From: Candidatus Saccharimonadota bacterium
GTDB lineage: Bacteria > Pseudomonadota > Gammaproteobacteria > Enterobacterales > Enterobacteriaceae
Assembly (NCBI GenBank): GCA_015134435.1
Contig: CP043989.1
Coordinates: 180,001-212,000 of the forward strand
Direction: 5' to 3'
Length of the DNA: 32,000 bases
Part shown: positions 1-32,000 of the stretch, piece by piece
How positions within the stretch are numbered: the first letter of the stretch is position 1
Layout of the letters: every line of letters begins with the position of its first letter
Notes under the pieces: model-generated
What the model saw: the letters and a program-made list of their open reading frames with translations, nothing else
What the model was told of the DNA's origin: nothing
Databases searched by the model: none
Program-made: the position numbers and the translations under genes

Positions 1-844
1 CACCTATATAATATATAGATTCCGTTTTTAAACAATTTGCTGATCTTACAGTAAGATCTAAATTATTAACAGAAGATAATAAAATAGGATTAAATTTATT
101 ATTTATATCTTTATTTTTATTTAAAATATTTTTATTTAAATTAACAAAAATACTTAATTGATCAATTAAAATTTTAGAAGCTTTACGAATAGCTAATTCA
201 GAATCTATAGTTCCATTAGTTTCAATTTTTAATATTAATTTATCTAAATTATTAAATTCTTTAGAACGAATATTTTTAATTTTATATGAAACACATTTTA
301 TAGGAGAATAATATGCATCAATAAATAATTTATTTTTTAATAAATTATCATTATTTTTAAAAAATTTTTTTTTAAATGAAGAAGACATATATCCTCTACC
401 TAATTCTATTTTCATACGCATTAAAATAGAACTATCTTCAGAAGTTAAATTACATATAACATATTTTGGATCTACTAAATTAAATTTTACATTAGAAGTA
501 ATATCTGAAGCTAAAATAGGTCCTATACCTTTTTTTTTTATTAATAAAATAGCTTCATTTAAATTATTATCTAAACTTATATATAAATTTTTTAAATTTA
601 AAATTATTTCTATAATATCTTCTAATAAACCATCTTTAACACTATATTCATGAGAAACACCATCAATTTCTAATTCAGTAATAGCATAACCAGGAATAGA
701 AGATAATAATATACGTCTTAAAACATTTCCCAAAGTATATCCAAACCCTCTTTCTAAAGGTTTTAAAATTATAAAAGAAGAAGTATTTGAAATTTTTTTT
801 ATTTTCATTAATTTAGGTTTTAAAATTTTTAAATTATTAATCAT
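1..844 (-). CDS. rpoA: DNA-directed RNA polymerase alpha subunit (partial; C-terminus beyond window edge)
   Basis: ATG at 842-844 (minus). Translation [49 protein letters not shown]...[20 protein letters not shown] aligns with E. coli RpoA NTD through the start of the CTD. It follows rpsD as in the alpha operon. The ORF is open to position 1. Confidence 0.93.
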
Positions 845-870
845 AATTAATTAATCTCATAATTATTAAT

Positions 871-1491
871 TTATTTTGAATAAAATTCTAAAATAAGATG
901 ATCTTCTATATCAGGAAAAATATATTTTTTTTTAGGAAAAAATTTAAACACACCTTCTAATTTTTTAATATCAATTTCTAATCAATTAGGTAATTCACGC
1001 TGTTTAAATAATTCTAAAGAATATTTAATACGATCTTGATTCTTTGCTTTATTTCTAATACTTATTATATCATTTAAAGATACTAAAAATGATGGAATAT
1101 TAACAATTTTATTATTAACTAAAATACATTTATGATTTATTAATTGACGAGATTCCGAACGAGTTACTCCAAAACCCATTCTATAAACAACATTATCTAA
1201 TCTTCTTTCTAAAAATAAAAATAAAATTTCACTTGTATTTTTTTTTAAACAAACAGATTTTTTATAATAATTTAAAAATTGCTTTTCTGTAATACCATAT
1301 ATATAACGAATTTTTTGTTTTTCTCTTAATTGAAGACCATAATCTGACAATCTATTTTTTTTATATCCATGTTGTCCAGGTAAACGACTAATATTACATT
1401 TTGATTCAATAGGACGTAAATTAGATTTTAAAAATAAATCAGTACCTTGTCTACGACTTAATTTTAATTTAGAACCTAAATATTTAACCAT
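871..1491 (-). CDS. rpsD: 30S ribosomal protein S4
   Basis: Track ORF 982..1491 ends at TGA (982-984). Reading it as Trp continues ..[43 protein letters not shown] to TAA at 871-873. The W sits in the conserved S4 WLEVD motif. 206 aa. Confidence 0.94.
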
Positions 1492-1520
1492 TTTATAAAT
1501 TCCTAAAAATAATTATTTTA

Positions 1521-1913
1521 TTAAATACGTCTTTTTTTAGGTGGACGACAACCATTATGAGGTATAGGTGTAATATCATTAATATTAATAATATTAAAAC
1601 CAGCATTATATAAAGCTCTTATACTTGATTCTCTTCCAGGACCAGGTCCATTTATCATAATTTCTAAATTTTTTATATTATATTGTTTAACAATTTCAAT
1701 ACATTTTTCTGTAGCTATTTGTGCTGCAAAAGGAGTAGATTTTCTAGATCCTCTAAAACCTGATCCACCTGATGTTTTTCATCCTAATACATTACCAAAT
1801 TTATCAGTAATACTAATTATAGTATTATTAAAAGAAGCATAAATATAAGCTATACCATTAAATATTTGCTTTTTTTTTTTTTTTTTAATATTTTTTTTAA
1901 ATATTTTAGACAT
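1521..1913 (-). CDS. rpsK: 30S ribosomal protein S11
   Basis: Not in the track as one ORF because of an in-frame TGA at 1779-1781. [57 protein letters not shown]...[12 protein letters not shown] matches S11 end to end. The A17 run (1870-1886) is in frame. Confidence 0.93.
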
Positions 1914-1931
1914 AAAATTTTCCAAATAAAA

Positions 1932-2288
1932 TTATTTTTTAAATTTACGTAATTTTTTACAAGTTTTAGCATTTGTTTTTGTACGTTGACCACGTACAGG
2001 TAATTTTTTACGATGTCTAATCCCACGATAACAATTTATATCAATTAATCGTTTAATATTTAACATTATTTCTCTTCTTAAATCACCTTCTAATATAAAA
2101 TTAGAAATTTTTTTTCTTATTATATTTATTTTTTCTTTATTTAAATCTTTTACTTTTATATAATAATTAATATTTAAATTATCACAAATTAATTTAGATC
2201 TAGATTTTCCTATACCATATATAGAAGTTAAAGCAAATAAAATAGATTTATTTTCTATTATATTCACTCCACATATTCTAATAACCAT
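1932..2288 (-). CDS. rpsM: 30S ribosomal protein S13
   Basis: Track ORF, 118 aa, MVIRICGVNI...GIGKSRS..ICD...RRLIDINCYRGIRHRKKLPVRGQRTKTNA. Typical S13 in the alpha-operon position. Confidence 0.95.
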   Translation of the reverse strand: MVIRICGVNIIENKSILFALTSIYGIGKSRSKLICDNLNINYYIKVKDLNKEKINIIRKKISNFILEGDLRREIMLNIKRLIDINCYRGIRHRKKLPVRGQRTKTNAKTCKKLRKFKK

Positions 2289-2317
2289 AATATAATTTTC
2301 CTAAAATATTTTAAAAA

Positions 2318-2434
2318 TTAACCTTGACGTTGTTTATGTTTTGAATTATTACTACAAATAACATATAAAACACCAAAACGTTTAACTATTTTACAAAAAG
2401 AACAAAATTTTTTTATAGAAGCTCTTACTTTCAT
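2318..2434 (-). CDS. rpmJ: 50S ribosomal protein L36
   Basis: Small ORF below the track cutoff: [38 protein letters not shown] (38 aa). Classic L36 sequence, sited between secY and rpsM. Confidence 0.92.
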
Positions 2435-2439
2435 ATATT

Positions 2440-3744
2440 TTAATTATATTTTTTTAAAATAGAAAAATAATTATTTGATATTATTAAAGATTTTATTTGA
2501 GTTATAAAATCTATAAAAACTATAATAACAATTAATAAAGAAATATTATTAAAATTAAATTTAATATTTAATATATTATATATAAAATTAGAATATAAAT
2601 ATATTATTAATATATATAAAGAATTAAATAAAGTTAATTTTAAAATAATATTTTTTAAAAAAAAAGAAGTATTTTTACCTGGTCTTATTTCATATATATA
2701 AGCTCCACTTTTATTTAAATTATTAGATATATCATTAGAATTATACATTAATAAATTATAAAAAAAACAAAAAAATATTATAAAAAATATATAAATTAAT
2801 AAATATAAAAAATTTTTATAATAAAATAAATTATTTATATATAATATAAATTTATATTTAAAATAATTATTTAATAAAAATAAAAAAAATGAAAAAAATA
2901 ATATTATATTTGAAGTAAAAATAAAAGATATTACTCCAGACATATTAATTTTAAAAGGTAAAAAAATATTATAAGAAGAAAAAAAATATTTAATATTTTT
3001 ATAATCTATAGATGAATATAAAATTAATATTTTTCTTTCAGAAATTTCAATAAAAATAATAAAATATATTATTAAAATAATAAAAAAAAATACTAAAAAT
3101 AATTTCATATAAGATAAATTTTTATTTAAAAATAATTTAAATAAAATTAATAATAAATTAAAAAAATTAGATATTATATTAATAAATATTAATACTGATA
3201 TACCATTACCTAAACTATTTTCCGAAATTTGTTCTGCTAATCATATTAAAAACATTGTTCCAGTTATTAAACTAATAATAAAAATAATATTATTTAAATT
3301 ATTTAATATAATATTTTTATAAATATAAAATTTATTTATATTTAAAAATAAAATAATAGAATGTATTATAGATAATAATAAAGTTAAATATTTTATATAT
3401 TTATTAATTTTATATTTTTTATAAATATCATCTTTAAATTTAATAAAATATGGAAAAATTATAATTAATAATTGAATTATAATAGAAGAAGAAATATATG
3501 GAATAATATTTAAAGATAAAATTGAAATATTTAATAAATTATTATTTAATAATATATTAAATATATTAATAATATTATTATTATATTTAAATAAATTATT
3601 TAATATATAAATATTTACACCAGGTATAGATATATAATTTAATATACGAAATATAAATATATAAAAAAATAAAAATAATATTCTATTTTTTAATTCTTTA
3701 AAAGTATTTAATAATAAATTAAAAAAAATATTTTTAATATTCAT
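2440..3744 (-). CDS. secY: Protein translocase subunit SecY
   Basis: Track ORFs 3241..3744 and 2440..3108 are in the same frame. The break is TGA at 3241-3243 in ..[28 protein letters not shown].. (E. coli [22 protein letters not shown]). 3109-3240 has no stops. C-terminal motifs [22 protein letters not shown] and [16 protein letters not shown] are retained. 434 aa. Confidence 0.92.
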
Positions 3745-3766
3745 ATAATTTATATAAAAATTCCAA

Positions 3767-4198
3767 TTAATTATTAATATTTAAAATTTTATAAACACTA
3801 GATGATAATTTTATATTATTATCTAATATTTTAATATTTTTATTAAATTTTTTATAACCTAAAATTATTTTAACAAATTTAATATTATGTTTAATAATTT
3901 TATTTTTTTTTAAAATATTTAAATTTATAATAGAATTATTATTAAATATAATTAATTTATCTAAAGATAATTCTTTATAAAAAATATTTTTTTTACTTTT
4001 AAAACCAAATTTAGGTATTCTACGATAAAAAGGTGTTTGACCACCTTCAAAATATCTTTTAATATTATAACCTGATCTAGATTTTTGACCTTTATGACCT
4101 CTACCACTAGTTTTACCTAAACCAGATCCTATACCTCTTCCTAAACGTTTAGATTTTTTTTTTTTTGATTTATAAAATAAATTATTTAAAAATAACAT
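3767..4198 (-). CDS. rplO: 50S ribosomal protein L15
   Basis: Track ORF, 143 aa. [27 protein letters not shown]...[17 protein letters not shown] is the L15 signature. Spc-operon position upstream of secY. Confidence 0.94.
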
Positions 4199-4229
4199 AA
4201 TTAATTACCATAATTAAAAAAATTTAAAA

Positions 4230-4727
4230 TTAAAAAATTTCTTTTAAAAATTTACCTCTTTTATTTGCAATAAAAAGAGGAGATTCTATACTAGATAGAG
4301 CTTTTATAGTTGCTTTTACTACATTTATAGGATTTGTAGAACCATAACATTTAGATAAAATATTTTTTATACCTGCTACTTCAAATAAAAATTTCATAGA
4401 TTTACCAGCTATTATACCAGTACCTTTTATAGTAGGTTTAATAAAAATTTTAGTACTATTATAACAATAATTTATTGAATATCTTAATGTTTTTTTTTTA
4501 TTTAAAGATATAGATATAATATTTTTATAAGATTTATTTAAAGATTTTTGTATTGCTAATGGCACTTCTTTAGCTTTTGCATAACCATAACCAACTTTAC
4601 CTTTTTTATTACCTACAACAGTTAAAGCAGAAAAAGAAAAAATTCTACCACCTTTAACTGTTTTAGAAATTCTATTAACAAATATTAATTTTTCACAATA
4701 TTTTTTATTAAAAATATTTTTTTTCAT
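4230..4727 (-). CDS. rpsE: 30S ribosomal protein S5
   Basis: Track ORF, 165 aa. LIFVNRISKTVKGGRIFSFSALTVVGNKKGKVGYGYAKAKEVPLAIQKS..GTGIIAG is typical S5. Only 31 nt separate it from rplO, so rpmD (L30) is absent here. Confidence 0.94.
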   Translation of the reverse strand: MKKNIFNKKYCEKLIFVNRISKTVKGGRIFSFSALTVVGNKKGKVGYGYAKAKEVPLAIQKSLNKSYKNIISISLNKKKTLRYSINYCYNSTKIFIKPTIKGTGIIAGKSMKFLFEVAGIKNILSKCYGSTNPINVVKATIKALSSIESPLFIANKRGKFLKEIF

Positions 4728-4744
4728 ATATTTAAAACCATAAA

Positions 4745-5107
4745 TTAAAATAATAATCCATATTTTCTAGCATATTCAGCTAATTTTTTTATACGTCCAT
4801 GATATTTAAAACCAGAACGATCAAATACAACATTATTAATATTTTTACTTAAAGCTTTTTTAGCTATAATTTTACCTAAAATAGAAGCAGAATATTTATT
4901 TCCAGTATATATTTTTTTATTAAAATATTTTTTATTTAAAGTAGAAATAGATATTAATGTAACTGAATTATTATTAATATATTTTATAATTTGAGCATAA
5001 ATATGACGAGAAGTTTTATGAATTACTAAACAAATTTTATTATTTTTTTTATATATTGAACGTATTTTTTTAGATCTACGTAAACGTCTTATATTTTTAT
5101 TTAACAT
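4745..5107 (-). CDS. rplR: 50S ribosomal protein L18
   Basis: Track ORF, 120 aa. RRLRRSKKIRS...LVIHKTSRHIYAQII...VFDRSGFKYHGRIKKLAEYARKYGLLF is the L18 signature. Confidence 0.93.
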   Translation of the reverse strand: MLNKNIRRLRRSKKIRSIYKKNNKICLVIHKTSRHIYAQIIKYINNNSVTLISISTLNKKYFNKKIYTGNKYSASILGKIIAKKALSKNINNVVFDRSGFKYHGRIKKLAEYARKYGLLF

Positions 5108-5110
5108 AAT

Positions 5111-5656
5111 TTATTTATTTATTTTTTTTTTATTTTCTTTAATTTTAATAAATTCATTTTTATAACGTATACCTTTACCTTTTTTATAACATTCAGGTTT
5201 TTTAAAAGATCTTATTTCAGCTGCTACTTGACCAACTTTTTGTTTATCATAACCTTTAATAATAATTTCATTAAAATTTAAACATTTTATAATAATATTT
5301 TTAGGTATATTATATTTAATAGTATATGAATATCCTAAATTTAAAAATAATATATTTTTTTTAATATAAGATTTATAACCAATACCAATTATTATTAATT
5401 TTTTTTTAAAATTATTTTTCAAACCTAATATAATATTATTAATTATAGAACGAAAAGTACCAGCATACATAGAAAATTTATAATAAGAATTAGAATTATT
5501 TAAAATAATTTTATTATTTTTTAATATAGGAGTAATAGAAAAATGAATTTTATTTTTAACAATTATATTATTTTTACATATTATAATTTTATTATTAATA
5601 ATATTAATTTTAATACCTTTAGGTATTAAAATAGGTTGTTTTGCAATTCTTGACAT
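5111..5656 (-). CDS. rplF: 50S ribosomal protein L6
   Basis: Track ORF, 181 aa. [17 protein letters not shown]...GIGYK...[28 protein letters not shown] is typical L6. Confidence 0.93.
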   Translation of the reverse strand: [181 protein letters not shown]

Positions 5657-5675
5657 TATATTACCTTAATTTTTT

Positions 5676-6074
5676 TTAATATATATAACCAATTATTTCT
5701 CCACCAATATTTAAATAACGAGCTTTTTTATCTGATAAAACACCTTTAGAAGTAGATATAATAACAACACCTAAACCAGATCTTATTAAAGGTAAATTTT
5801 TATAAGATTTATATATTCGTAAACTAGGACGACTAATTTTTTTTATAAATGAAATAACAGGTTTATTTAAATAATATTTTAAATAAATATTTATTTTTTT
5901 TTTCTTTAAAATATCAAAAAATATATTATATTTTTTAATATAACCTTCAGAATAAATAACATTTAAAATAGAACATTTAAATTTAGTATAATAAATAGAT
6001 ATTTTTTTTTTTTTTGCTAATTGTGCATTTCTTATACATGTAAACATATCTGATATAGAATCTTGCATACTCAT
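5676..6074 (-). CDS. rpsH: 30S ribosomal protein S8
   Basis: Track ORF, 132 aa. MSMQDSISDMFTCIRNAQLAKKK...ISRPSLRIY...GLGVVIISTSKGVLSDKKARYLNIGGEIIGYIY is typical S8. Confidence 0.94.
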   Translation of the reverse strand: MSMQDSISDMFTCIRNAQLAKKKKISIYYTKFKCSILNVIYSEGYIKKYNIFFDILKKKKINIYLKYYLNKPVISFIKKISRPSLRIYKSYKNLPLIRSGLGVVIISTSKGVLSDKKARYLNIGGEIIGYIY

Positions 6075-6100
6075 AAATATTTACCAAAAAATTATTAATA

Positions 6101-6406
6101 TTATCAACTAGATTTTTTTAAACCAGGAATATCACCTCTTACTGCAAATTCACGAAATTTAATTCTACTTAAACCAAATCTACGCAAAAAACCATGTGAT
6201 CTTCCAGTTAAAACACATCTATTACGATGTCTACAAATACTAGAATTTCTAGGAAATGATTGTAATTTAATAATTGCATTTCATCTTTTTTTACTAGAAG
6301 ATTTAATATTAGAAATAATATTTTTTAATTTTATTTTTTTATAAAAATATTTTTTTATTAATAAAGATCTTTTTTTTTCACGAATTATAATAGATTTTTT
6401 AGTCAT
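6101..6406 (-). CDS. rpsN: 30S ribosomal protein S14
   Basis: Missed by the track (in-frame TGA at 6281-6283 and 6104-6106). [13 protein letters not shown]...[52 protein letters not shown] ends exactly like E. coli S14 (..KASW). 101 aa. Confidence 0.92.
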
Positions 6407-6408
6407 AA

Positions 6409-6948
6409 TTAATTTTTAAACGGAAAAGAAAAACAATTTAATAAAAATATAGATTCATCAATATTTTTATTTTTTATAATAATAGAAATATTCATACCAT
6501 GAATATATTTAGTTTTTTCATAATTAATTTCTGGAAAAATAATATGTTCTTTTATACCAATATTTAAATTTCCATATTTATCTAAAGATTTTTTAGAAAT
6601 ACCTCTAAAATCTCTAATTCTTGGAATAACAATAAATATTAATTTATCAAGAAAAAATCACATTAATTTTTTTCTTAGTGTAACTTTACATCCAATAGGA
6701 TTATTTTTACGAATTTTAAAACTAGATATAGATTTTTTAGAATTAATAATTATAGGTAACTGACCTGAAATTAATTTTAAATTTAATTTAACATCATTTA
6801 TCCTATTTTTTAATAAATCAAATGAATTTAAACTTACACTTAAAACTATTTTAATAATTTTAGGTACTTGCATAATAGATTTATAATTAAATTTTTTTAT
6901 TAAATCATATATAATAACATTTTTATATAAATTATATAATTTACTCAT
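6409..6948 (-). CDS. rplE: 50S ribosomal protein L5
   Basis: Track ORF 6658..6960 ends at TGA 6658-6660 (E. coli ..ERMWEF..) and continues to ..CFSFPFKN* (TAA 6409-6411; E. coli ..FDFPFRK). I prefer the ATG at 6946-6948: MSKLYNLYK aligns with E. coli MAKLHDYYK, it gives 179 aa, and it avoids the overlap with rplX. The alternative ATG is at 6958-6960. Confidence 0.9.
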
Positions 6949-6949
6949 A

Positions 6950-7276
6950 TTATTTTTCATTAATTAATAAATTATTAAATTTTAAATAACGTACTTTTTT
7001 TTTATTTTTTAAATATTTAAAACCTACTCTAGATAAAATAATTTTATTATTACTTAAAAAAAAATGACTAATATTAGAAATATTAATTCAAGATTCTTTT
7101 TTTATAATTTTTCCAATTATATTATTAATAGAATCAGATTTAATATTTTTATAAACTAAATTTATATTATTAATAATAACTTTATTTAATTTAATTTTTT
7201 TAATTATACCTCTTTTACCTTTATCTTTACCAGAAATTACAATAACTTCATCATTTACATGAAACTTACAAGACAT
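6950..7276 (-). CDS. rplX: 50S ribosomal protein L24
   Basis: Track ORF 7088..7276 (MSCKFHVNDEVIVISGKDKGKRGIIKKI, the KOW motif) ends at TGA 7088-7090. Table 4 continues to TAA at 6950-6952. 108 aa. Confidence 0.88.
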
Positions 7277-7291
7277 ATTTAATTACCTTAA

Positions 7292-7660
7292 TTAAATTAT
7301 TTCAGAAGCAAGAGAAATAATTTTACTAAATTTTTCACATTTTAATTCTTTTGTAATAGGACCAAAAATTCTTGTTCCTAATGGTTGATTATTATCATTT
7401 AATATAATACAAGAATTACTATCAAATTTAATTTTAGAACCATCTAATCTTTGTATTCCATATTTAGTTCTTATAATAATAGCTTTTAATATATCACCTT
7501 TTTTAATTTTACTTTTAGATATAACTTCTTTAACAACTACTTTAATTATATTACCAATATTAGCATATTTAAATCTTGTACCACCTAAAACTTTTATACA
7601 CATAACTAATTTAGCACCAGTATTATCTGCTACTAATAAAAAAGATCTTTCTTGAATCAT
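7292..7660 (-). CDS. rplN: 50S ribosomal protein L14
   Basis: Track ORF, 122 aa. [27 protein letters not shown]...[19 protein letters not shown] is highly conserved L14. Confidence 0.96.
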
Positions 7661-7669
7661 AAAATATAC

Positions 7670-7912
7670 TTATTTAATAATTTTATATAAAAATCATGTT
7701 TTTTTTTTAGATAAAGGACGACATTCTTTTATCATTATAATATTATTAATATTACATTTATTATATTCATCATGAACATAAACTTTAATTTTTTTTTTTA
7801 TATATTTTTTATATATTTTATGTTTTATATATTTATTTATTATAGCTACAACAGTTTTATTCATTTTATTACTTATTACAATAGCTTTTTTAATATTTTT
7901 TTTTTTTATCAT
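7670..7912 (-). CDS. rpsQ: 30S ribosomal protein S17
   Basis: Track ORF 7694..7912 ends at TGA. It continues ..ECRPLSKKKT-W-FLYKIIK* (E. coli ..ECRPLSKTKSWTLVRVV). The N-terminus is collinear with E. coli S17. 80 aa. Confidence 0.92.
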
Positions 7913-8102
7913 CTAAATTTTTTTCTCATAAAATAGTTTTTATAATACTTATATTTTTTTTACATCTACGAATTAAATGATTTCTCTTAATTTTATTTAA
8001 AAAAAAACTCATACGTAAATTAAATTTTTGATTATTTAAAATAAATAATTCTCTTTTTAATTCTTCTATATTTTTATTTTTTAAAAATTTATTGTTGATC
8101 AT
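7890..8102 (-). CDS. rpmC: 50S ribosomal protein L29
   Basis: ATG 8100-8102. [61 protein letters not shown].. aligns with E. coli L29 (..EQFNLRMQ..VRRDVARVKTLLNEK). There is an in-frame TGA at 7926-7928. The table-4 stop, TAA 7890-7892, gives a 23-nt overlap with rpsQ, so the 3' end is less certain. Confidence 0.8.
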
Positions 8103-8512
8103 AATAAATTATTTTTTATAACAAAAGTTGTTTTTATAGATAATTTTGCACTAGCTAATTTAAAAGCTTTTTTAGCAATAAATTCATTAACTCCATCTAA
8201 TTCATATAATATTTTACCAGGTTTAATAACAGCTACTCAATATTCAACATTTCCTTTACCCTTTCCCATTCTAATTTCTAAAGGTTTTTTAGTAATAGGT
8301 TTATCAGGAAATATTCTTATCCATAAAAATCCTTGTTTTTTTATAGAACGAGTAATAACACGACGTGCAGATTCTATTTGTTTAGAAGATATATGTCCTC
8401 TAGTAATAGCTTTTAAAGCATATTTACCAAAATTAATTTCAATATCATTAGATCAACCTTTATTTCTACCCTTTTGCATTTTTTTATATTTAGTTCTTTT
8501 AGGTTGTAACAT
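8081..8512 (-). CDS. rplP: 50S ribosomal protein L16
   Basis: ATG 8510-8512. [20 protein letters not shown]...[61 protein letters not shown] (8099-8101) then overlaps the rpmC ATG. Under table 4 it reads W-STINF to TAA 8081-8083. 143 aa. Confidence 0.9.
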
Positions 8513-8527
8513 AAATAAATCTCCAAT

Positions 8528-9235
8528 TTATATTTTATAATTTTTTTTTAAATAATTTTTAAAATTAATTATTTTATTATAATATAATTTTATAGGATAA
8601 AATTTATCTAATATTTCTCCTTTAAATATTCAAACTTTTACACCAATTACTCCATAATTAGTAAAAGCTTGTTTAAAACTATAATCTATATTAGCACGTA
8701 AAGTATGTAAAGGTATTGAACCTTGTTTATATCATTCAGTTCTAGCAATATCAGTACCTCCTAATCTACCACTAATTTTTAATTTAATACCTTTACAACC
8801 TAAACGCATAGCATTATAAATTACTCTTTTCATAACTCTTCTAAACATCATACGTTTTTCTAATTGAAAAACAACATTATCAGCTATTAATTTAGCATCT
8901 AATTCTGGTCTACGAATTTCTAATATATTTATTTGAGAAGGTACTCCAGTAATAATAGAAATTTTATTTTTAAGTTTTTTTATATCTTCACCTTTTTTAC
9001 CTATTACTATACCAGGTCTAGCAGTATATATTATAATTCTTATACTTTTTTTAGCAGGTCTTTCAATTAATATTTTAGATATTAATGCTTTAGATAATTT
9101 TTTATTTAAATAATTACGAACTTTATAATCACTATATATATTTTTAGCAAAATCTTTTTTATTTACAAATCATGTAGAATTTCACATTTTTGTTATACCT
9201 AAACGTATAACATTAGGATTAACTTTTTGACCCAT
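8528..9235 (-). CDS. rpsC: 30S ribosomal protein S3
   Basis: Absent from the track because of several in-frame TGAs. [23 protein letters not shown]...[31 protein letters not shown]...GVKVWIFKGE matches E. coli S3, with every TGA at a conserved W. TAA at 8528-8530. 235 aa. Confidence 0.93.
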
Positions 9236-9247
9236 ATTATTTTCCTA

Positions 9248-9580
9248 TTAAATTTTACAAAGACATATAGTTATATGACTAGTTTTTTTTAATATATAAT
9301 TTAATCTACCTTTAGCTCTAGGAATAACTCTTTTAGAAGAAGAAGCATGATCAATATATATTTTTGATATAATTAATAAATTTTTATTTAAACCATAATT
9401 ATTTTTAGCATTATAAATTGCTGATAATAAAATTTTTTTAATTAAAAAAGAAGCTTTTTTATTAATAAAATTTAAAATATTTAAAGCAATATTAACATTT
9501 TTTTTACGAATTAAATTAGCAACTAATCTAAGTTTTCTACAAGAAGATTTTATATAACAACCTTTAGATAAAATATTCAT
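9248..9580 (-). CDS. rplV: 50S ribosomal protein L22
   Basis: Track ORF, 110 aa. CRKLRLVANLIRKKNVNIALNIL.F..KKAS..IKK.L.SAI.NA..N...VIPRAKGRLNYILKKTSHITI is typical L22. S10-operon position. Confidence 0.92.
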   Translation of the reverse strand: MNILSKGCYIKSSCRKLRLVANLIRKKNVNIALNILNFINKKASFLIKKILLSAIYNAKNNYGLNKNLLIISKIYIDHASSSKRVIPRAKGRLNYILKKTSHITICLCKI

Positions 9581-9602
9581 AATAAATAAACCTTAATAAA
9601 AT

Positions 9603-9887
9603 CTAATTATTTTTTCTATTTTTATTATTATTAGATAAATGTCCCCTATAAGTTCTTGTAGGAGAAAATTCACCTAATTTATGACCTATCATTTCTTCAG
9701 TAATATAAACAGGAATATGATTTCTACCATTATGAACATTTATAGTTAAACCAACCATATTAGGTAAAATAGTAGAACGTCTAGATCAAGTACGAATAAT
9801 ACCTTTTTTTTTATTTAAAATAAATTTTTTTATTTTTTTAAGTAAAGAAACATCAATAAATGGTCCTTTTTTAAAAGAACGAGACAT
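9603..9887 (-). CDS. rpsS: 30S ribosomal protein S19
   Basis: True start is the internal ATG at 9885-9887 of track ORF 9786..10046 ([18 protein letters not shown]..). TGA at 9786-9788 falls in ..[54 protein letters not shown] (E. coli ..LRTWSRRSTIFP). The stop is TAG at 9603-9605. 94 aa. Confidence 0.92.
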
Positions 9888-9903
9888 AATTTTTTTAAAA
9901 CTC

Positions 9904-10728
<825 letters not shown>

Positions 10729-10742
10729 ATATATTTAAAAAT

Positions 10743-11042
10743 TTAATTTAATTTATTTATATTAATATTTTGATCTTTTTTTAAAATAATATAAGCTTTT
10801 TTTCAAATTTTAATACGTTTATTTTTATTATTTTTAGATTTAATTATTTCTTTTACTAATAAAGTTCTAATTTTTTTAATTTTAACATTAAAAATTTTTT
10901 TTATTATATAAGAAATATTTAATTTATTAATATTAGAATTAAATTTAAATACTAAAGTATTATTTTTTTTAGATAAAAAAAAAGTTTTTTTAGAAAAATA
11001 AGGTTTTTTAATAAAATCTAAAAAATAATTTTTATTATTCAT
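10743..11042 (-). CDS. rplW: 50S ribosomal protein L23
   Basis: Track ORF 10803..11042 ends at TGA. It continues ..KRIKI-W-KKAYIILKKDQNININK..* (E. coli ..RSDWKKAYVTL). TAA at 10743-10745. 99 aa. Confidence 0.88.
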
Positions 11043-11646
11043 TAATTAATCTTTCCTCAATTATTTTAATAGCTTTTAAAGTAAAAATAACATTTTTATA
11101 TTTTATTAAATTTATAATATTTATATTATTAACTTTACATAAAAAAACATTATGTAAATTACGAGAAGATAAAAAAAGATTCTTATTATAATTATGAATT
11201 ATAATTAATAATTTATCTAAACTAATAAAATTAAAAAATTTAATAAATTCTTTAGTCTTTGGTTTATTAATAATAATATCATTAAAAACATGAAATCTAA
11301 ATTGTCTAAAAAGTTCAGATAAAATACTTTTAAAAGCATTAATATACATTTTTCTATTAATTTTAAAAATATATTTTTTTGGTTTAGAGGCAAAAACAAC
11401 CCCACCAGAACGTCATAAAGGACTTTTTAAAGAACCAACTCTAGCTCTTCCAGTACCTTTTTGTTTTCAAGGTTTTCTATTAGAACCTTTAACTTCAGAT
11501 CTAGATTTTTGTGAAACATTTCCTTTACGTAAATTTAATCTATAAGAATTAATAACTTGATTAATTAAAGAAATATTTAAAGGAAAATTTAAAATTTTAT
11601 CTGATATTTCTATATTTAAATTATTATCTTTTAAAATTATATCCAT
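11035..11646 (-). CDS. rplD: 50S ribosomal protein L4
   Basis: ATG 11644-11646, in frame with track ORF 11035..11349. The N-terminal part ..[42 protein letters not shown] has two TGAs at conserved W positions (E. coli [25 protein letters not shown]). 8-nt overlap with rplW. 203 aa. Confidence 0.92.
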
Positions 11647-11666
11647 AAAATTTATATTTAATTATA

Positions 11667-12269
11667 ATTAATTGAAGATTTAATAATAATATTACTTTTA
11701 TTAAAACCTGGAATAGATCCTTTTATTAATAAAATATTTTTTTTATTATATATTTTTATTACTTTAAGAAATTTTAAAGTAATTCGATTATTACCTAAAC
11801 GACCGGACATTTTTTTTCCTTTAAATACTTTTCCAGGACTTTGATTTTGACCTATAGAACCGGGAGCTCTATGAGATAAAGAATTACCATGAGAACTATC
11901 TTGAGAACTAAAATTTCATCTTTTTATAGTACCACAAAATCCTTTACCTTTAGAATAACCCGTTATATCAACTTTTTTTACATTTTTAAATAAATTAATA
12001 TTAATAATTTTACCAACATAAGTATGTATATTTTTAATATAAGGAATTTCTCATAACCCTTCACCAGGTAATATATTTAATTTATTATAAAATCCTAATT
12101 CACATTTATTTAAATATTTTTTTTTTTTTTTACCTGTAGTAACTTGAACAGTATATTTATTAATACAAGTAATAATATTTTCTTTTATTTTTATAATAGT
12201 AACAGGTATTAAATAATTTTTAATAAAAATACTAGTCATACCTATTTTTTTACCAATTAAAGATATCAT
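11667..12269 (-). CDS. rplC: 50S ribosomal protein L3
   Basis: Track ORF 12051..12269 ([15 protein letters not shown]...) ends at TGA. It continues ..[61 protein letters not shown].. to TAA 11667-11669. 200 aa. Confidence 0.93.
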
Positions 12270-12286
12270 TTTATTATATAAATATA

Positions 12287-12598
12287 TTATTTTAAACTAA
12301 TTTGAACATCAACACCAGAAGCTAAATTTAATTTCATTAAAGCATCAACAGTTTTATCAGTAGATTCAATTATATCTATTAAACGTTTATGTGTTCTAAT
12401 TTCATATTGATCTCTTGCATCTTTATCTACATGAGGAGAAGTTAATACAGTAAAACGTTCAATAGAAGTAGGTAACGGAATAGGACCACAAACTTGTGCT
12501 CCAGTTTTTTTAGCTGTTTCTATTATCTCTAAAGTAGAAATATCTACTAAACGATGATCAAAAGATTTTAATTTTATACGTATTTTTTGATTTTTCAT
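12287..12598 (-). CDS. rpsJ: 30S ribosomal protein S10
   Basis: Track ORF, 103 aa. [71 protein letters not shown] is near-canonical S10. Confidence 0.97.
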
Positions 12599-12609
12599 TT
12601 TTTTTTAAT

Positions 12610-13794
12610 TTATAAAATAATTTTAGTTACTATACCAGCACCAACTGTACGTCCACCTTCTCTTATAGCAAAACGTAAACCTTCATTCATAGCTACAGGA
12701 TTAAATAATTTAATTAAAAATTTAATATTATCACCAGGCATAACCATTTTTACTTTTTTTGGTAATTTTATAGTTCCAGTAACATCAGTAGTACGAAAAT
12801 AAAATTGAGGACGATATCCATTTAAAAAAGCAGTATGTCTACCTCCTTCTTCTTTAGATAAAATATATACTTCAGCTTCAAAAGAAGTATGAGGATTAAT
12901 ACTACCAACTTTAGCTAAAACTTGACCTCTTTCAATCTCTTCTCTTTTAATACCTCTTAATAATATTCCAACATTTTCTCCAGCTCTACCTTCATTTAAT
13001 AATTTACGAAACATTTCTATACCAGTACATATAGATTTTTTAGTATCACGTATACCAACAATTTCTACCTCTTCTCCAATTTTTATAATACCTTTATCTA
13101 TTCTACCAGTAACTACTGTACCTCTACCAGAAATAGAAAAAATATCTTCAATAGGCATTAAAAATGGTTCATCAATATTCCTAATAGGATTAGGTATATA
13201 ATTATCTAAAATTTCAGATAAATCAAAAATTTTATTTTCTCATTTCTCTATACCTTCTAAAGCTTTTAATGCAGATCCTCTAATAATAGGAGTATTACTT
13301 CCAGGAAAATTATATTGATTTAATATATCTCTAATTTCCATTTCAACTAATTCTAATAATTCTTTATCATCAACCATATCACATTTATTTAAAAAAACAA
13401 TTATATATGGAACTCCTACTTGACGAGCTAACAATATATGTTCTCTAGTTTGAGGCATAGGACCATCTGTAGCAGAAACAACTAAAATTGCACCATCCAT
13501 TTGTGCAGCTCCGGTAATCATATTTTTAATATAATCAGCATGACCAGGACAATCAACATGAGCATAATGTCTATTTAAAGTATCATATTCAACATGAGAA
13601 GTATTAATTGTAATTCCTCTAGCTTTTTCTTCAGGAGCATTATCTATTTGATCAAATGTACATGCTTTACCACCATATTTTTTAGATAAAATAGTTGTTA
13701 TAGCTGAAGTTAAAGTAGTTTTACCATGATCTACATGGCCTATAGTACCTACATTTATATGAATTTTATTACGATTAAATTTTTCTTTTGACAT
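12610..13794 (-). CDS. tuf: Elongation factor Tu
   Basis: Track ORFs 13240..13794 and 12610..13158 are in one frame (1185 nt). The break is TGA 13240-13242 in ..ALEGIEK-W-ENKIFDL.. (E. coli ..EGDAEWEAKILEL). G1-G4 motifs are intact ([17 protein letters not shown]). Residues [36 protein letters not shown] and [24 protein letters not shown] match gamma-type rather than beta-type EF-Tu. Confidence 0.98.
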
Positions 13795-13819
13795 AATTTA
13801 TTCACCTTAATATTATTAA

Positions 13820-15949: not shown

Positions 15950-15978
15950 TTAATTAAATTCCTCAAAACTATTTATAA

Positions 15979-16455: not shown

Positions 16456-16481
16456 ATAATTTTACTCTTTTATTATATAAA

Positions 16482-20579: not shown

Positions 20580-20596
20580 TAATATTATAATTTAAA

Positions 20597-21656: not shown

Positions 21657-21729
21657 AGCGGAAAACGAGATTTGAACTCGTGACTTTAACCTTGGCAAGG
21701 TTATACTCTACCAACTGAGTTATTTCCGC
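21657..21729 (-). tRNA. glyW: tRNA-Gly (anticodon GCC)
   Basis: Reverse complement gcggaaa ta actc-agttggta-gagt a taacc-ttGCCaa-ggtta aagtc acgag-ttcaaat-ctcgt tttccgc t. Collinear with E. coli Gly(GCC). No encoded CCA. Confidence 0.9.
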
Positions 21730-21772
21730 ATAAAATTATAAATATATACTTTAAAAATAATAAAAATATATT

Positions 21773-21846
21773 CGGTACGAACGGGATTTGAACCCGTGAT
21801 CTCCAGCGTGACAGGCTGACATTCTAACCAACTGAACTATCGTACC
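21773..21846 (-). tRNA. aspT: tRNA-Asp (anticodon GUC)
   Basis: Reverse complement ggtacga ta gttc-agttggtta-gaat g tcagc-ctGTCac-gctgg agatc acggg-ttcaaat-cccgt tcgtacc g. Collinear with E. coli tRNA-Asp. Only about 4 nt downstream of the 5S. No encoded CCA. Confidence 0.9.
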
Positions 21847-21850
21847 AAAT

Positions 21851-21976: not shown

Positions 21977-21991
21977 ACATTTTTAAATTGC

Positions 21992-22000
<9 letters not shown>
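21977..22000. repeat. Distal arm of 24-nt perfect inverted repeat bracketing 23S rRNA (helix 1 plus processing stem)
   Basis: acatttttaaattgcgaagttaag (21977-22000) is the exact reverse complement of 24920-24943. Confidence 0.9.
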
Positions 22001-24919
<2,919 letters not shown>

Positions 24920-24927
<8 letters not shown>

Positions 24928-24943
24928 CGCAATTTAAAAATGT
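24920..24943. repeat. Proximal arm of 24-nt perfect inverted repeat bracketing 23S rRNA
   Basis: cttaacttcgcaatttaaaaatgt (24920-24943) is the exact reverse complement of 21977-22000. In the minus-strand precursor the two arms would pair across the whole 23S. Confidence 0.9.
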
Positions 24944-24964
24944 CTTACAATTATTAAAGAACTA

Positions 24965-25037
24965 CGTCTCCTAGGGGAATCGAACCCCTGCTATCGCCGT
25001 GAAAAAGCGATGTCCTAAACCTCTAGACGAAGAAGAC
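24965..25037 (-). tRNA. gltT: tRNA-Glu (anticodon UUC) in the 16S-23S spacer
   Basis: Reverse complement gtcttcttcgtctagaggtttaggacatcgctttTTCacggcgatagcaggggttcgattcccctaggagacg is collinear with E. coli tRNA-Glu (GTCCCCTTCGTCTAGAGGCCCAGGACACCGCCCTTTCACGGCGGTAACAGGGGTTCGAATCCCCTAGGGGACG). No encoded CCA. Confidence 0.9.
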
Positions 25038-25043
25038 AAAATA

Positions 25044-25078
25044 AAAAATAAAAAACTGTGTAATACTTATAAAATATT
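25044..25078. repeat. 16S trailer arm of interrupted inverted repeat (putative 16S processing stem)
   Basis: aaaaataaaaaactgtgtaatacttataaaatatt. Its reverse complement matches leader 26715-26752 at about 31 positions, with one mismatch, one small bulge and one 2-nt mismatch. Core aactgtgtaa (25054-25063) pairs with ttacacagtt (26731-26740). Confidence 0.75.
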
Positions 25079-25087
25079 TATCCTTAA

Positions 25088-26650
<1,563 letters not shown>

Positions 26651-26714
26651 AACAATACAACAATATATAATGTTCTTAAAATAAAAAACATTTTAAGAAT
26701 CAAAAAAATTTATT

Positions 26715-26752: not shown

Positions 26753-26790
26753 AAAAGAACAAAAAAACTATAAAACAAATATAATATACT

Positions 26791-26819: not shown

Positions 26820-26854
26820 GTAAAATATATATATATTTTTTTAAAATATTAAAA

Positions 26855-27307: not shown

Positions 27308-27319
27308 AATATAATTAAC

Positions 27320-27550: not shown

Positions 27551-27567
27551 TTTAAAATCACCAAAAA

Positions 27568-27894: not shown

Positions 27895-27989
27895 ATTATT
27901 ACCTTTAATTTTTTTAAAATAAATTTATTTATAAAATAAAATTAAAAAAAAAATAAAAACAAAATTATATAATTAAATTAATAAATAAA

Positions 27990-28391: not shown

Positions 28392-28402
28392 ATATATATA
28401 CC

Positions 28403-28804
28403 TTAAAAATTAATTAAAATAGGATTTTGAGAAATATGTAAATGATTATTATAATTATATATTTTTAATCTTTTTAAATATATTTTACTTAAACGATTTT
28501 TAGGTAACATACCTTTAACAGCATGTGTAATAATATATTTAGGGGATTTTATCATCATTTCTTCAAAAGAAATACTTTTTAAATTACCTACATAACCACT
28601 ATGACGATAATATATTTTATTTTTTCTTTTATTACCAGTAACTAAAATATATTTAATATTTGTTAATATAACAAAATCTCCATTATCTTTATAAGATAAA
28701 TAATTAGATTTATGCTTTCCCATAAGCAAACAAACAACTTTAGTTATTAATCTTCCTAAAATTCTATTTTTTGAATTAATTAAATATCAATTATTTTTTT
28801 TCAT
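28403..28804 (-). CDS. rplM: 50S ribosomal protein L13
   Basis: ATG 28802-28804, in frame with track ORF 28403..28729. MKKNN-W-YLINSKNRILGRLITKVVCLLMGKHKSNY.. (E. coli ..[32 protein letters not shown]), with TGA 28787-28789 at the conserved W. 133 aa. Confidence 0.93.
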
Positions 28805-29585
28805 ATATTATTTAAAAAATTAAATTATTTTCATTATTTATAATAAATAATTTTTATATTTAATTATTAATATAAAATTAAAATATTTTAATTATTAAAA
28901 TTAAAATATAAATTATAAATATTATATATATAAAAAATTTATTAAATTAAATTAATTTAATAAATTTTTAATTTTATTTTTATTAAAAATTTTTAAATAT
29001 TTAAAATATTTATATTAATAAAAATAATATTAATAAAAAAATATATTAAATTTATTTAAAATTTTTATTAATATAAATTAATAATTAATATTATTAAAAT
29101 AAAAATATTTATATTTTTAAAAAATTATTAAAATATTAATAATAAAATATTACTAAAAATCATTTTTAATAATTTTATTAAAAATAAAAATTAATTTTTT
29201 AAATTTTAAAATAAATTAATTATAAATAAAAATAAAATATATAAAATTAATAAATATTTTTTTAATAAAATAATTTTAACTAATTTTAAATATAATTTAT
29301 TTATTAATATAATATATAATAAATTAAAAAATATATATTTTTAAAAATAATTATTATATAAATATTTAAATAAAATAAAAATATGAAAAATTAAAAATTT
29401 ATATAATAAATATATTATATATTATATATTTTAAATAAATTTAAAAAAAATAAAAAATTATTTTTAATATTAAATTATTTAATAAAATATAAAATTTTAT
29501 ATTAAAATAATAAAATAAAATATATTTATATTAAAATAAATATATTATATTTTATATAAAAAATAAACAAAAGGAATAATTATAA
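28805..29585. other. Very long, almost pure A/T divergent intergenic spacer (rplM <- -> rplU)
   Basis: About 780 nt with no ORF in the track. In 28805-29567 I count only five G/C (28832, 29153, 29161, 29280, 29385). 28833-29152 (320 nt) has none at all. The first G cluster is the rplU SD (aagga, 29571-29575). All other spacers in the window are 1-205 nt. Confidence 0.9.
28933..28969. repeat. 37-nt perfect palindrome (18-bp arms, 1-nt centre)
   Basis: aaaaatttattaaattaaattaatttaataaattttt is self-complementary around position 28951. I checked it pair by pair, and it breaks at 28932/28970. Confidence 0.85.
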
Positions 29586-30168: not shown

Positions 30169-30299
30169 TATTATTTTAATAATAAATAAATATAAATTTA
30201 AAAAATAAAAATAAAAATATTTCAATTAATTGATTAAAAAAATAATAAAATATAAAAAATTTTTAAAATTAATTTTAAAAAAATAAATAAAATAAAAAA

Positions 30300-30916
30300 A
30301 TGAAAAAAAAAAAAAATGATTAAATTTAATATTTAAAAATAAATATACAAAAATAGCAAAAAAAAAAAAATTAAGATCTAGATCATGATTTAAAATTAAA
30401 GAAATACAAAAAAAATATAAAATATTTAAAAAAAATAATAATATAATAGATTTAGGATGTTCACCAGGAGGTTGATCAATTTTTTTATCAAAAAAAATAA
30501 ATAAAAAAAATAAAATATTTAGTTGTGATATTTTAAATATGAAAAAAATTAAAAATGTAAATTTTATAAAAGGAGATATATGTAATATAAAAACAATAAA
30601 TAAAATAATAAAAAAAACAAAATTATATAAAATAAATTCTATTATATCAGATATATCACCAAACATTTCAGGTATTAAAGAAATAGATAATCCTAAATAT
30701 AAAAATATAATTAAAAGTATTATATATTTATGTAAAAAAAAATTATTTATAAATGGTAATTTAATAATTAAAATATTTTTAGGAGAAAATTTTTCCTATA
30801 TTTTAAAAAAAATTAAAAATATTTTTAAAAAAATAAATATTTATAAACCAAAATGTTCATATAAATGATCTAAAGAAATATATATAATTGCTTTAAAATA
30901 TAAAAATAATTATTAA
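30300..30916 (+). CDS. rlmE: 23S rRNA (U2552) 2'-O-methyltransferase RlmE/FtsJ; apparent -1/+2 frame problem at an A14 tract after the ATG
   Basis: Body frame 30317..30916: W-LNLIFKNKYTKIAKKKKLRSRSWFKIKEIQKKYKIF...IIDLGCSPGGWSIF...FSCDIL...FIKGDI...IISDISPNISG...NLIIKIFLGENF...IYKPKCSYKWSKEIYIIALKYK* is collinear with E. coli RlmE from W13 ([32 protein letters not shown]...DLGAAPGGWSQ...). That frame is closed by TAA at 30293-30295 and has no start codon before the W. The only ATG (30300-30302) is followed by 14 A and is out of frame (MKKKKND*). With 15 A it would read MKKKKKWLNLIF... Confidence 0.8.
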
Positions 30917-30991
30917 AAAATATTATAATATATTAATAAAAAATTTTAAAATAAAAAAATAAAATATATAATACATTAAATAGGAAAAAAA

Positions 30992-31261
30992 ATGTATAAA
31001 ATATTTTCAATATTATTTATATCAATATGTATTATTTTAATTTTAATAATTATTATTTCTCCAAATAAAAATAATATAATAAAATCATATTCAAATTATA
31101 ATAATATTATTACATCAAATTTTATAAAAAATAAATTTAATAATATAATTATTATATTAACTATATTATTTTATATATTATCTATAATATTAAATTTAAT
31201 AAATAATTTTAAAATTAAAAAAATAAAAAAAAAAATAAAAAATATAAAAATATTAAAATAA
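30992..31261 (+). CDS. secG: Protein-export membrane protein SecG (probable)
   Basis: Track ORF, 89 aa, two hydrophobic helices. MY-start and the second helix NFIKNKFNNIIIILTILFYILSIILNLINN resemble E. coli SecG NFMTRMTALLATLFFIISLVLGNINS. It lies immediately upstream of a leuU-type tRNA-Leu, as in E. coli secG-leuU. SD agga upstream. Confidence 0.68.
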   Translation: MYKIFSILFISICIILILIIIISPNKNNIIKSYSNYNNIITSNFIKNKFNNIIIILTILFYILSIILNLINNFKIKKIKKKIKNIKILK

Positions 31262-31277
31262 TAAATTATTATATTAA

Positions 31278-31361
31278 ACCGGGATGGTGAAAATGGTAAA
31301 CACACTACTTTAAGATAGTAGCTTCTATATGAAAATACGGGTTCAAATCCCGTTCCCGGTA
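31278..31361 (+). tRNA. leuU: tRNA-Leu, class II, leuU orthologue with apparent anticodon AAG
   Basis: accggga tg gtg-aaaatggtaaa-cac a ctact-ttAAGat-agtag cttctatatgaaaat acggg-ttcaaat-cccgt tcccggt a. Arm-for-arm collinear with E. coli leuU (..CTACC-TTGAGGT-GGTAG..), so the loop TTGAGGT has become TTAAGAT (G34->A, G37->A). No encoded CCA. Confidence 0.8.
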
Positions 31362-31505
31362 TAATTTTAAAATAATATTTTATATATTTAATATTTTTAT
31401 AATATATTAAATTAATTATTATTAAAAAATTTAAATAATATATTAATTAATATATTTTTTTATTAAATATTTTTTATAAAATAAAAATTTAGGAGATATG
31501 CTAAA

Positions 31506-32000
31506 ATGAATAAAAAAATTTTAGCAGTTGCAGAAGCTTTATCTAATGAAAAATCTTTATCTAAAAAAATTGTTTTTAAAATATTAGAAAATGCTTTAAA
31601 TACAGTAATAAAACAAAAATATAAACAAAAAATTAATATAAGAATATATATAAATAAAAAAAATGGAAAATTTTATATATATAGAAGATGAATAGTAGTA
31701 AAAAAAGTTATATATCCAGAAAAAGAAATAAATTTAAATAAAGCTATATATAAAAATAAAAAAATAAAATTAGGTGAATTTATAGAAAATAAAATAAAAA
31801 AAATAAAATTTGATAGAATAACTACACAAAAAATAAAAAAAATTATAATACAAAAAATTAAAGAAAAAAAAAAAAATATAAATTTTAAAAAAATAATCAA
31901 AAAAAAAGGAAAAATAATAACAGGATTTATAAAAAAAATAGATACAAAATATATACTTTTAGATATAGGAAATAATTTAGAAGCAAAAATATTAAATAAA
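31506..32000 (+). CDS. nusA: Transcription termination/antitermination factor NusA (partial; 3' end beyond window)
   Basis: Track ORF 31506..31691 ends at TGA. MNKKILAVAEALSNEKSLSKKIVFKILENAL...FYIYRR-W-IVVKKV...IKFDRITTQKIKKIIIQKIKE...GKIITGFIKKIDTKYILLDIGNNLEAKIL matches E. coli [89 protein letters not shown]. SD aggag at 31491-31495. Confidence 0.94.

Follow-up and report, generated by a model that had tools for sequence, protein, structure and literature searches.

The window analyzed here, a 32,000-nucleotide stretch of contig CP043989.1 (positions 180,001 to 212,000 of the forward strand), comes from a bacterial symbiont, Candidatus Stammera capleta, in which the codon UGA does not mean stop. 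Throughout the most highly expressed genes of the window UGA is translated as tryptophan (Trp), and it never serves there as a terminator. UGA is thus almost certainly an ordinary Trp sense codon in this lineage, as in translation table 4, with termination by UAA and UAG. We consider table 4 to be correct because the TGA codons fall on Trp columns, because proteins read through them match family profiles over their full length, and because the same conclusion follows when the window is set beside six further Stammera loci, among them one with the standard code. Reassignment of UGA to Trp had been proposed in an original prediction made from the sequence of the window, and it is borne out by these lines of evidence.

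In-frame TGA codons and conserved tryptophan positions

Table-4 translation of the window yielded 45 protein genes, alongside one rRNA operon and 6 tRNAs. There are 51 in-frame TGA codons, spread over 25 of the 45 genes, and the genes concerned include those for EF-Tu, EF-G, SecY and 17 ribosomal proteins. The original prediction had counted at least 25 genes as broken in a standard-code scan of open reading frames (ORFs), and 25 is the exact number. Orthologues were taken from the annotated genome of Escherichia coli K-12 and each was aligned to the table-4 translation of the corresponding window gene. A Trp lies beneath 44 of the 50 alignable TGA codons; with the chance rate set at the share of Trp among aligned E. 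coli residues (0.74%), the binomial probability of this outcome is P ~2e-87. The earlier statement that every traced TGA coincides with an E. coli Trp therefore stands for the great majority of codons but not for seven, which are discussed below. Column conservation was further checked in 79 other Proteobacteria, using sequences taken around fusA, and many of the columns proved to be Trp without exception. The Trp columns at fusA codons 52, 72, 128 and 194 are invariant (79/79), and Trp is likewise present in 24/24 other Proteobacteria at codons 22, 168 and 202 of rpsC (S3).

The Trp-containing motifs that had been singled out in the original prediction are all present in the table-4 proteins: EKWEN, TMDWMEQE, TTFW, ETVWRQ, SRWLGIRP, SPWG, MWNSTWF, TEWY, KVWIF, RTWSRRST, FLIWLAEQ, KPWKQKG, SPLWRSGG, YRRW and PGGWS, together with the C-terminal Trp of both S7 and S14. 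Moreover, five table-4 proteins match their NCBIfam profiles from end to end in single hits, namely HflX (profile positions 18-348 of 351), MiaA (2-284 of 288), Fmt (2-302 of 315), RlmE (10-208 of 209) and SecY (1-414 of 414). The expectation that joining the fragments would restore lengths near those of E. coli held within 9 residues for 38 of the 42 complete aligned genes, but rpsG, def, rpsF and secG encode a C-terminus that is 21-23 residues shorter. With table 11, translation of EF-G would break off after 51 of its 709 residues, and 42% of the codons that make up the 45 genes would lie at or beyond a first TGA. The TGA-bearing genes are as follows, with Trp residues of E. coli given by their E. 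coli numbers.

871-1491, minus strand: rpsD (S4); TGA codon 170 (984-982) on W170; TGG in the code-11 relative L091
1521-1913, minus strand: rpsK (S11); TGA codon 45 (1781-1779) on W44
2440-3744, minus strand: secY; TGA codon 168 (3243-3241), in FLIWLAEQ, on W173
6101-6406, minus strand: rpsN (S14); TGA codons 42 (6283-6281) and 101 (6106-6104, the last residue) on W42 and W101; codon 101 is TGG in Stammera L001
6409-6960, minus strand: rplE (L5); TGA codon 101 (6660-6658) on W97
6950-7276, minus strand: rplX (L24); TGA codon 63 (7090-7088), Ala in E. coli, TGA also in Stammera L001 and L085
7670-7912, minus strand: rpsQ (S17); TGA codon 73 (7696-7694) on W73
7890-8102, minus strand: rpmC (L29); TGA codon 59 (7928-7926), Asn in E. 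coli, AGA in relatives
8081-8512, minus strand: rplP (L16); TGA codons 20 (8455-8453; Leu in E. coli, TGA in relatives), 92 (8239-8237; on W92) and 138 (8101-8099); TGG at codon 64
8528-9235, minus strand: rpsC (S3); TGA codons 18, 22, 168 and 202 (first bases 9184, 9172, 8734 and 8632), all Trp in E. coli
9603-9887, minus strand: rpsS (S19); TGA codon 34 (9788-9786) on W34; stop TAG
9904-10728, minus strand: rplB (L2); TGA codons 213 and 248 (first bases 10092 and 9987) on W213 and W248; stop TAG
10743-11042, minus strand: rplW (L23); TGA codon 80 (first base 10805) on W80
11035-11646, minus strand: rplD (L4); TGA codons 60 and 78 (first bases 11469 and 11415), in KPWKQKG and SPLWRSGG
11658-12269, minus strand: rplC (L3); TGA codons 73 and 118 (first bases 12053 and 11918) on W80 and W125
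12610-13794, minus strand: tuf (EF-Tu); TGA codon 185 (first base 13242) on W185; TGG in L001
13820-15949, minus strand: fusA (EF-G); TGA codons 52, 72, 128, 194 and 221 (first bases 15796, 15736, 15568, 15370 and 15289), all Trp in E. coli
15979-16455, minus strand: rpsG (S7); TGA codons 104 and 158 (first bases 16146 and 15984), the latter the last residue
17611-18546, plus strand: fmt; TGA codons 17, 112, 120, 211, 229 and 244 (first bases 17659, 17944, 17968, 18241, 18295 and 18340), 4/6 on E. coli Trp; codon 120 is TGG in L001
19320-20579, minus strand: hflX; TGA codons 132, 335 and 388 (first bases 20186, 19577 and 19418), all Trp in E. coli
20597-21541, minus strand: miaA, for the enzyme that makes the i6A37 (isopentenyladenosine at position 37) modification of tRNA; TGA codons 253, 283 and 287 (first bases 20785, 20695 and 20683), all Trp in E. 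coli
27568-27894, minus strand: rpsF (S6); TGA codon 41 (first base 27774) on W42
28403-28804, minus strand: rplM (L13); TGA codon 6 (first base 28789) on W15
30296-30916, plus strand: rlmE; TGA at 30317, 30386 and 30473 on W13, W36 and W65, and at 30866 on Arg
31506-32000, plus strand: nusA, 5' part; TGA codon 62 (first base 31689), in YRRW, on W62

After the 51 in-frame TGA codons the next base is T 23 times, A 19 times, G 6 times and C 3 times. Across all codons the first position is A in 50%, T in 26%, G in 17% and C in 7%, so that a mild excess of T is seen after TGA.

The 5' end of rlmE is unusual in that no in-frame start codon lies upstream of the conserved N-terminus (30293-30330). 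An ATG at 30300 precedes 14 consecutive A and is one base out of frame with the Trp TGA at 30317. The start of this gene could involve transcriptional slippage on the poly-A run, an error in the recorded homopolymer length, or a downstream ATA start codon.

Affiliation with Stammera and comparison within the clade

Candidatus Stammera capleta is an extracellular, pectin-digesting symbiont of cassidine leaf beetles (tortoise beetles). In a collection of species-representative genomes, the window EF-G is 84-85% identical to that of Candidatus Stammera capleta CP043985.1, with the next matches at no more than 65%, and both the gene order and the tRNA order of the window are those of CP043985.1. 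The RpoA fragment encoded at the edge of the window is 100% identical to an NCBI protein, after which come approximately 40 further RpoA proteins. Judged by these sequence affinities, the window is assigned on solid grounds, at the level of the genus, to a chromosome of Candidatus Stammera capleta. Its content of guanine plus cytosine (GC), 19.7% over the 32 kb with rRNA included, lies within the range of the published genomes of this symbiont, which are 0.22-0.34 Mb in size with 14-20% GC. The smallest and most AT-rich of them, from the symbiont of Acromis sparsa, comprises 216,430 bp including one plasmid, with 13.9% GC and 201 coding sequences (CDSs) (bioRxiv 10.1101/2023.12.12.571295).

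Six other Stammera loci (L001, L085 and L088-L091, of which L091 is CP144787.1) were compared with the window, and approximately 21 kb around rpoA was taken from five Stammera chromosomes (CP144813.1, CP043983.1, CP144853.1, CP062308.1 and CP144787.1). At sites aligned between the window and CP043985.1, TGA is matched by TGA at 31 positions, while at seven positions the two strains have swapped codons, six with TGA in the window and TGG in CP043985.1, and one with the reverse. CP144813.1, CP043983.1, CP144853.1 and CP062308.1 use TGA as the window does, and each of the four has 14-16 of the window's TGA sites in common with it. A direct codon tally in three of these four loci gave 36-50 in-frame TGA codons, 2-4 TGG codons and only TAA or TAG as stops.

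CP144787.1 (GCA_036689305.1; positions 1-20996) behaves differently. Its 29 genes contain no in-frame TGA and 38 TGG codons, even though the A share of AAA/AAG in this locus is 90%, and at 14 of the TGA positions of the window it has TGG. One of the 29 genes, rplN, terminates in TGA at the orthologous length. CP144787.1 keeps the standard code, an independent confirmation of the gTranslate preprint's claim that standard-code Stammera exist. Among four candidates considered as standard-code Stammera, P0010, P0026 and P0029 were rejected on finding code 4, and P0030 was found to be standard-code. Taken together, the strain swaps, the neutral-like ratio of A to G at the third position and the occurrence of TGG in the standard-code relative indicate that UGA and UGG behave as synonymous codons.

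Stop codons and the rarity of TGG

Forty-three of the 45 protein genes have their stop codon within the window, nusA and rpoA being partial. None of these 43 genes terminates in TGA; 40 end in TAA and three in TAG. The original prediction had named TAA as the general stop with TAG at rplB and rpsS, to which rpsR adds a third TAG.

TGG had been described as apparently abandoned, and it is indeed nearly gone, but one in-frame TGG is present, at codon 64 of rplP (8323-8321), on W64 of E. coli. TGA and TGG therefore stand at 51:1 among the 52 Trp codons, a share of 98.1% for the codon ending in A. The other A/G pairs in the window genes have closely similar A shares (AAA/AAG 98.6%, GAA/GAG 96.2%, CAA/CAG 96.7%, TTA/TTG 98.7% and AGA/AGG 96.8%). 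Since the 51:1 ratio matches these pairs, the rarity of TGG is AT bias acting on a synonymous pair and no separate phenomenon.

Weighing of alternative readings

Several points weigh against reading UGA as an ordinary Trp codon, or limit what can be drawn from it. That none of 43 genes stops at TGA carries little weight when taken alone, because the code-11 relative itself uses TGA as a stop in just 1 of 29 genes. Seven in-frame TGA codons have no E. coli Trp as counterpart: rplX 63, rpmC 59, rplP 20 and 138, fmt 17 and 120, and rlmE 191. For the steps of decoding and termination, neither the tRNA-Trp gene (trnW) nor prfB, which encodes release factor 2 (RF2), was found in the window or in the fetched Stammera loci. 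Loss of RF2 would not be safe to assume for the strain of the window, because prfB is annotated in 15/49 Stammera assemblies, just 5 of which use code 11, though it is absent from most (PMC13462651; bioRxiv 10.64898/2026.05.24.727570).

Six of the seven TGA codons off E. coli Trp are covered by the fetched Stammera loci. At three of these the relatives carry TGA or TGG, and at the other three AGA, TGT or ATA, all single-base neighbors of TGA, a pattern of normal sense-codon evolution. Codon 138 of rplP deserves separate mention. The L16 protein of the window has 143 residues, seven more than in E. coli, and this TGA lies two codons beyond the E. coli end, where it overlaps the ATG of rpmC as ATGA. 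A stop at this codon is rejected because relatives have either TGT or TGA there with the same length of 143 residues and a conserved tail. The end of rplP differs in the standard-code Stammera, where the protein has 140 residues, and the L089 protein has 132.

The alternative that survives best, though we regard it as very unlikely, is an ambiguous or transitional code, in which a near-cognate tRNA-Trp(CCA) would read UGA while RF2 competes for it, so that decoding would be partial or dependent on context, much as in Candidatus Providencia siddallii PSAC. Such a state would fit the finding that Stammera has only tRNA-Trp(CCA) and that prfB is annotated in approximately 10 code-4 assemblies (PMC13462651; bioRxiv 10.64898/2026.05.24.727570), the mild excess of T after TGA (23/51, compared with 26% T at first codon positions overall), and the position of rplP TGA 138 so close to the E. 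coli end and the rpmC start. However, with 98% of Trp codons being TGA, including five in EF-G and four in S3, appreciable termination at UGA would be crippling. Moreover, no gene terminates in TGA, the rplP tail past codon 138 is conserved in both length and sequence with relatives that have a sense codon there, and TGA stands to TGG in the neutral A/G ratio, from which it follows that TGA carries no detectable cost.

A meaning of UGA other than Trp, whether glycine (table 25), cysteine or selenocysteine, has a negligible probability. It could draw on tuf codon 185, which is Gly in most of 31 distant orthologues, and on rplP codon 138, where relatives have the Cys codon TGT. Yet tuf codon 185 is Trp both in E. 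coli and in Stammera L001, where it is written TGG, and Codetta infers Trp for UGA in Stammera (PMC8629427). Recoding to any of these residues is excluded because E. coli has neither Gly nor Cys at any of the 50 aligned sites, compared with Trp at 44, and because the comparison with CP043985.1 alone yields seven swaps between TGA and TGG; for selenocysteine, there is in addition no tRNA-Sec in the window, and the 51 UGA codons lie on Trp columns of ribosomal proteins and translation factors.

Least credible of all, to the point of being virtually without probability, is the view that the standard code (table 11) applies and that the 25 TGA-bearing genes are pseudogenes of a decaying genome: pseudogenes do occur in tiny symbiont genomes, and rlmE lacks an in-frame start, but the Trp-column statistics exclude pseudogenization, as does the conservation that continues unchanged past each TGA with full-length profile matches, and pseudogenization would have to affect EF-Tu, EF-G, SecY and 17 ribosomal proteins while identical TGA sites are retained in strains 15-45% diverged in protein sequence.

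Decoding and termination components

A search of the 32 kb of the window found no gene for tRNA-Trp, prfA or prfB, and tRNA-Trp was likewise not found in the Stammera loci L001, L085 and L088-L091. The rRNA operon of the window has the layout of E. coli rrnC, except that a tRNA-Gly(GCC) occupies the trpT position, followed by miaA-hflX-rlmB (21657-21847). From this arrangement we infer that the tRNA-Trp gene has left its ancestral enterobacterial position. The tRNA that follows tRNA-Asp was considered as a disguised tRNA-Trp and rejected, being a normal tRNA-Gly(GCC).

Changes in the ribosome or in EF-Tu that might promote misreading of UGA were also sought. The 16S rRNA is identical to that of E. 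coli at sites 530, 790, 912, 926, 1054, 1196, 1200, 1400, 1407, 1408, 1492 and 1493, as is the 23S rRNA at sites 1067, 1093, 1095, 1913, 1914, 2451, 2555, 2585, 2602 and 2661. The same holds for EF-Tu residues Q124, G222, G316, Q329 and A375, and for S12 residues K42, K87, P90 and G91. Such a change is therefore rejected as an explanation, as no difference is seen at the classical UGA-suppressor or decoding sites, 16S C1054 and 23S G1093 included.

Content of the window

Positions 2-16850 on the minus strand hold four ribosomal-protein operons (alpha, spc, S10 and str), which run from rpoA to rpsL. They include rpmJ (L36), which is present at 2318-2434. Adjoining the str operon region are tRNA-Cys and tRNA-Leu(UAA), then def-fmt on the plus strand, then rlmB-hflX-miaA. 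The rRNA operon is complete, with 16S, tRNA-Glu, 23S, 5S and tRNA-Asp followed by tRNA-Gly(GCC). ORFs of at least 50 residues that contain several TGG codons, such as 22174-22500, were examined as candidate genes and rejected, as all lie within the 23S and 16S rRNA genes (21990-26700). Beyond the rRNA operon come rplI-rpsR-rpsF, rpsI-rplM, a 781-bp gap, rplU-rpmA, rlmE, secG, tRNA-Leu(AAG) and the start of nusA.

Several genes are missing from these otherwise familiar operons. The gene for L30, rpmD, is missing between rpsE and rplO (4199-4229), and is kept by the larger Stammera genome L089. Relative to the E. coli operons, priB is missing between rpsF and rpsR (27551-27567), hfq between miaA and hflX (20580-20596), and rimP and metY ahead of nusA (31362-31505).

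The 781-bp gap (28805-29585) has a GC content of 1.0% and separates the divergent genes rplM (minus strand) and rplU (plus strand). Across it the GC skew moves from approximately -0.3 to +0.2, the AT skew changes sign, and the cumulative GC skew reaches its minimum at approximately 29 kb. The gap is probably the replication origin, although the switch in gene orientation alone could contribute to the skew.

The tRNA-Leu at 31278-31361 has the anticodon AAG at the place where E. coli has leuU (GAG), and A34 is unusual in a bacterial tRNA-Leu. The window genes make very little use of CTN codons (CTT 22, CTA 3, CTC 0 and CTG 0). In two larger Stammera genomes, L089 and L091, rplQ is followed by a gene for a tadA-like deaminase, which is not present there in L085, L088 or L090.

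Discussion

The reassignment of UGA to Trp described here is not new, as it has been known for Stammera since 2017, when it was first reported by Salem et al. (cited in PMC10540940 and PMC8629427). It has since been reported repeatedly as code 4 (PMC10540940, PMC8629427, PMC13462651, bioRxiv 10.64898/2026.05.24.727570 and bioRxiv 10.1101/2023.12.12.571295), the last of these annotating 50 Stammera genomes with that code, and it has been confirmed by Codetta (PMC8629427). The window agrees with published Candidatus Stammera capleta in gene order, GC content and TGA usage, and nothing of substance differs; the proportion of CDSs with UGA is 62% in the published genomes and 56% (25/45) in the window. 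According to a 2026 preprint (bioRxiv 10.64898/2026.05.24.727570), five genomes that form a basal Stammera lineage retain code 11 together with prfB. This lineage belongs to the same clade as the window and shares its gene order near the spc and alpha operons, yet CP144787.1 has no in-frame TGA, 38 TGG codons and one gene ending in TGA, whereas the window has 51 TGA codons, one TGG and no TGA stop.

Comparison with other symbionts that have undergone the same reassignment highlights what is particular to Stammera. Surveyed Stammera genomes have only tRNA-Trp(CCA) and no tRNA-Trp(UCA) (PMC10540940, PMC13462651, bioRxiv 10.64898/2026.05.24.727570), and this tRNA is reported to have a normal anticodon stem of 5 bp (PMC13092985). 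The betaproteobacterium Candidatus Zinderia insecticola resembles Stammera in its tiny, extremely AT-rich genome, in reading UGA as Trp and in having tRNA-Trp(CCA) only, and has lost prfB (PMC10540940, PMC13092985). However, its tRNA-Trp has an anticodon stem of 4 bp, a variant shown to read UGA, as opposed to the 5 bp of Stammera (PMC13092985). Candidatus Nasuia, Candidatus Hodgkinia and the Mycoplasmatales likewise read UGA as Trp, with RF2 lost and UAA and UAG as stops, but unlike Stammera they carry the cognate tRNA-Trp(UCA) (PMC10540940, PMC13462651). Candidatus Providencia siddallii PSAC, also a gammaproteobacterial animal symbiont, shares with Stammera both UGA as Trp and tRNA-Trp(CCA). 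It is transitional, with UGA in 20% of its genes, prfB present and some genes that seem to end in UGA (PMC10540940), whereas in the window 56% of genes contain UGA and none ends in it.

In the window, extreme AT mutation pressure acts on UGA and UGG as on any synonymous A/G pair, and has brought approximately 98% of Trp codons to UGA. The loss of RF2 (prfB) from most code-4 Stammera, as the literature describes it, would mean that nothing terminates at UGA. Freed from competition by RF2, tRNA-Trp(CCA) might then read UGA through a C34-A3 wobble mismatch, or by means of a modification. In E. coli, the i6A37 made by MiaA promotes the reading of UGA by tRNA-Trp. The MiaA retained in the window may aid UGA reading in the same manner, which we offer as a lead and not as a result. 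A decoding device of a kind not yet described, such as a modification of C34, C-to-U editing or a Hirsh-type change in the tRNA body, is conceivable because 51 of the 52 Trp codons are UGA, the only tRNA-Trp reported for Stammera is a CCA species with a 5-bp stem and the suppressor sites are unchanged; on balance, we think it rather unlikely.

In practical terms, these data underline the warning in the original prediction that table-11 annotation would mislead. A table-11 pipeline would truncate 25 of the 45 genes, those for EF-Tu, EF-G, SecY and the 17 ribosomal proteins among them. The window provides a clean worked example of a documented recoding, to which we add local numbers and no new biology. 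It bears on the question of how a genome in which nearly all Trp codons are UGA can be served by a tRNA-Trp whose anticodon is CCA. Stammera is well suited to addressing this question, since a single clade contains both lineages with the standard code and lineages with the recoded UGA. CP144787.1 would be a natural comparator for changes in tRNA-Trp, and a decoding device in the tRNA body might become visible when trnW is compared between the two kinds of lineage.

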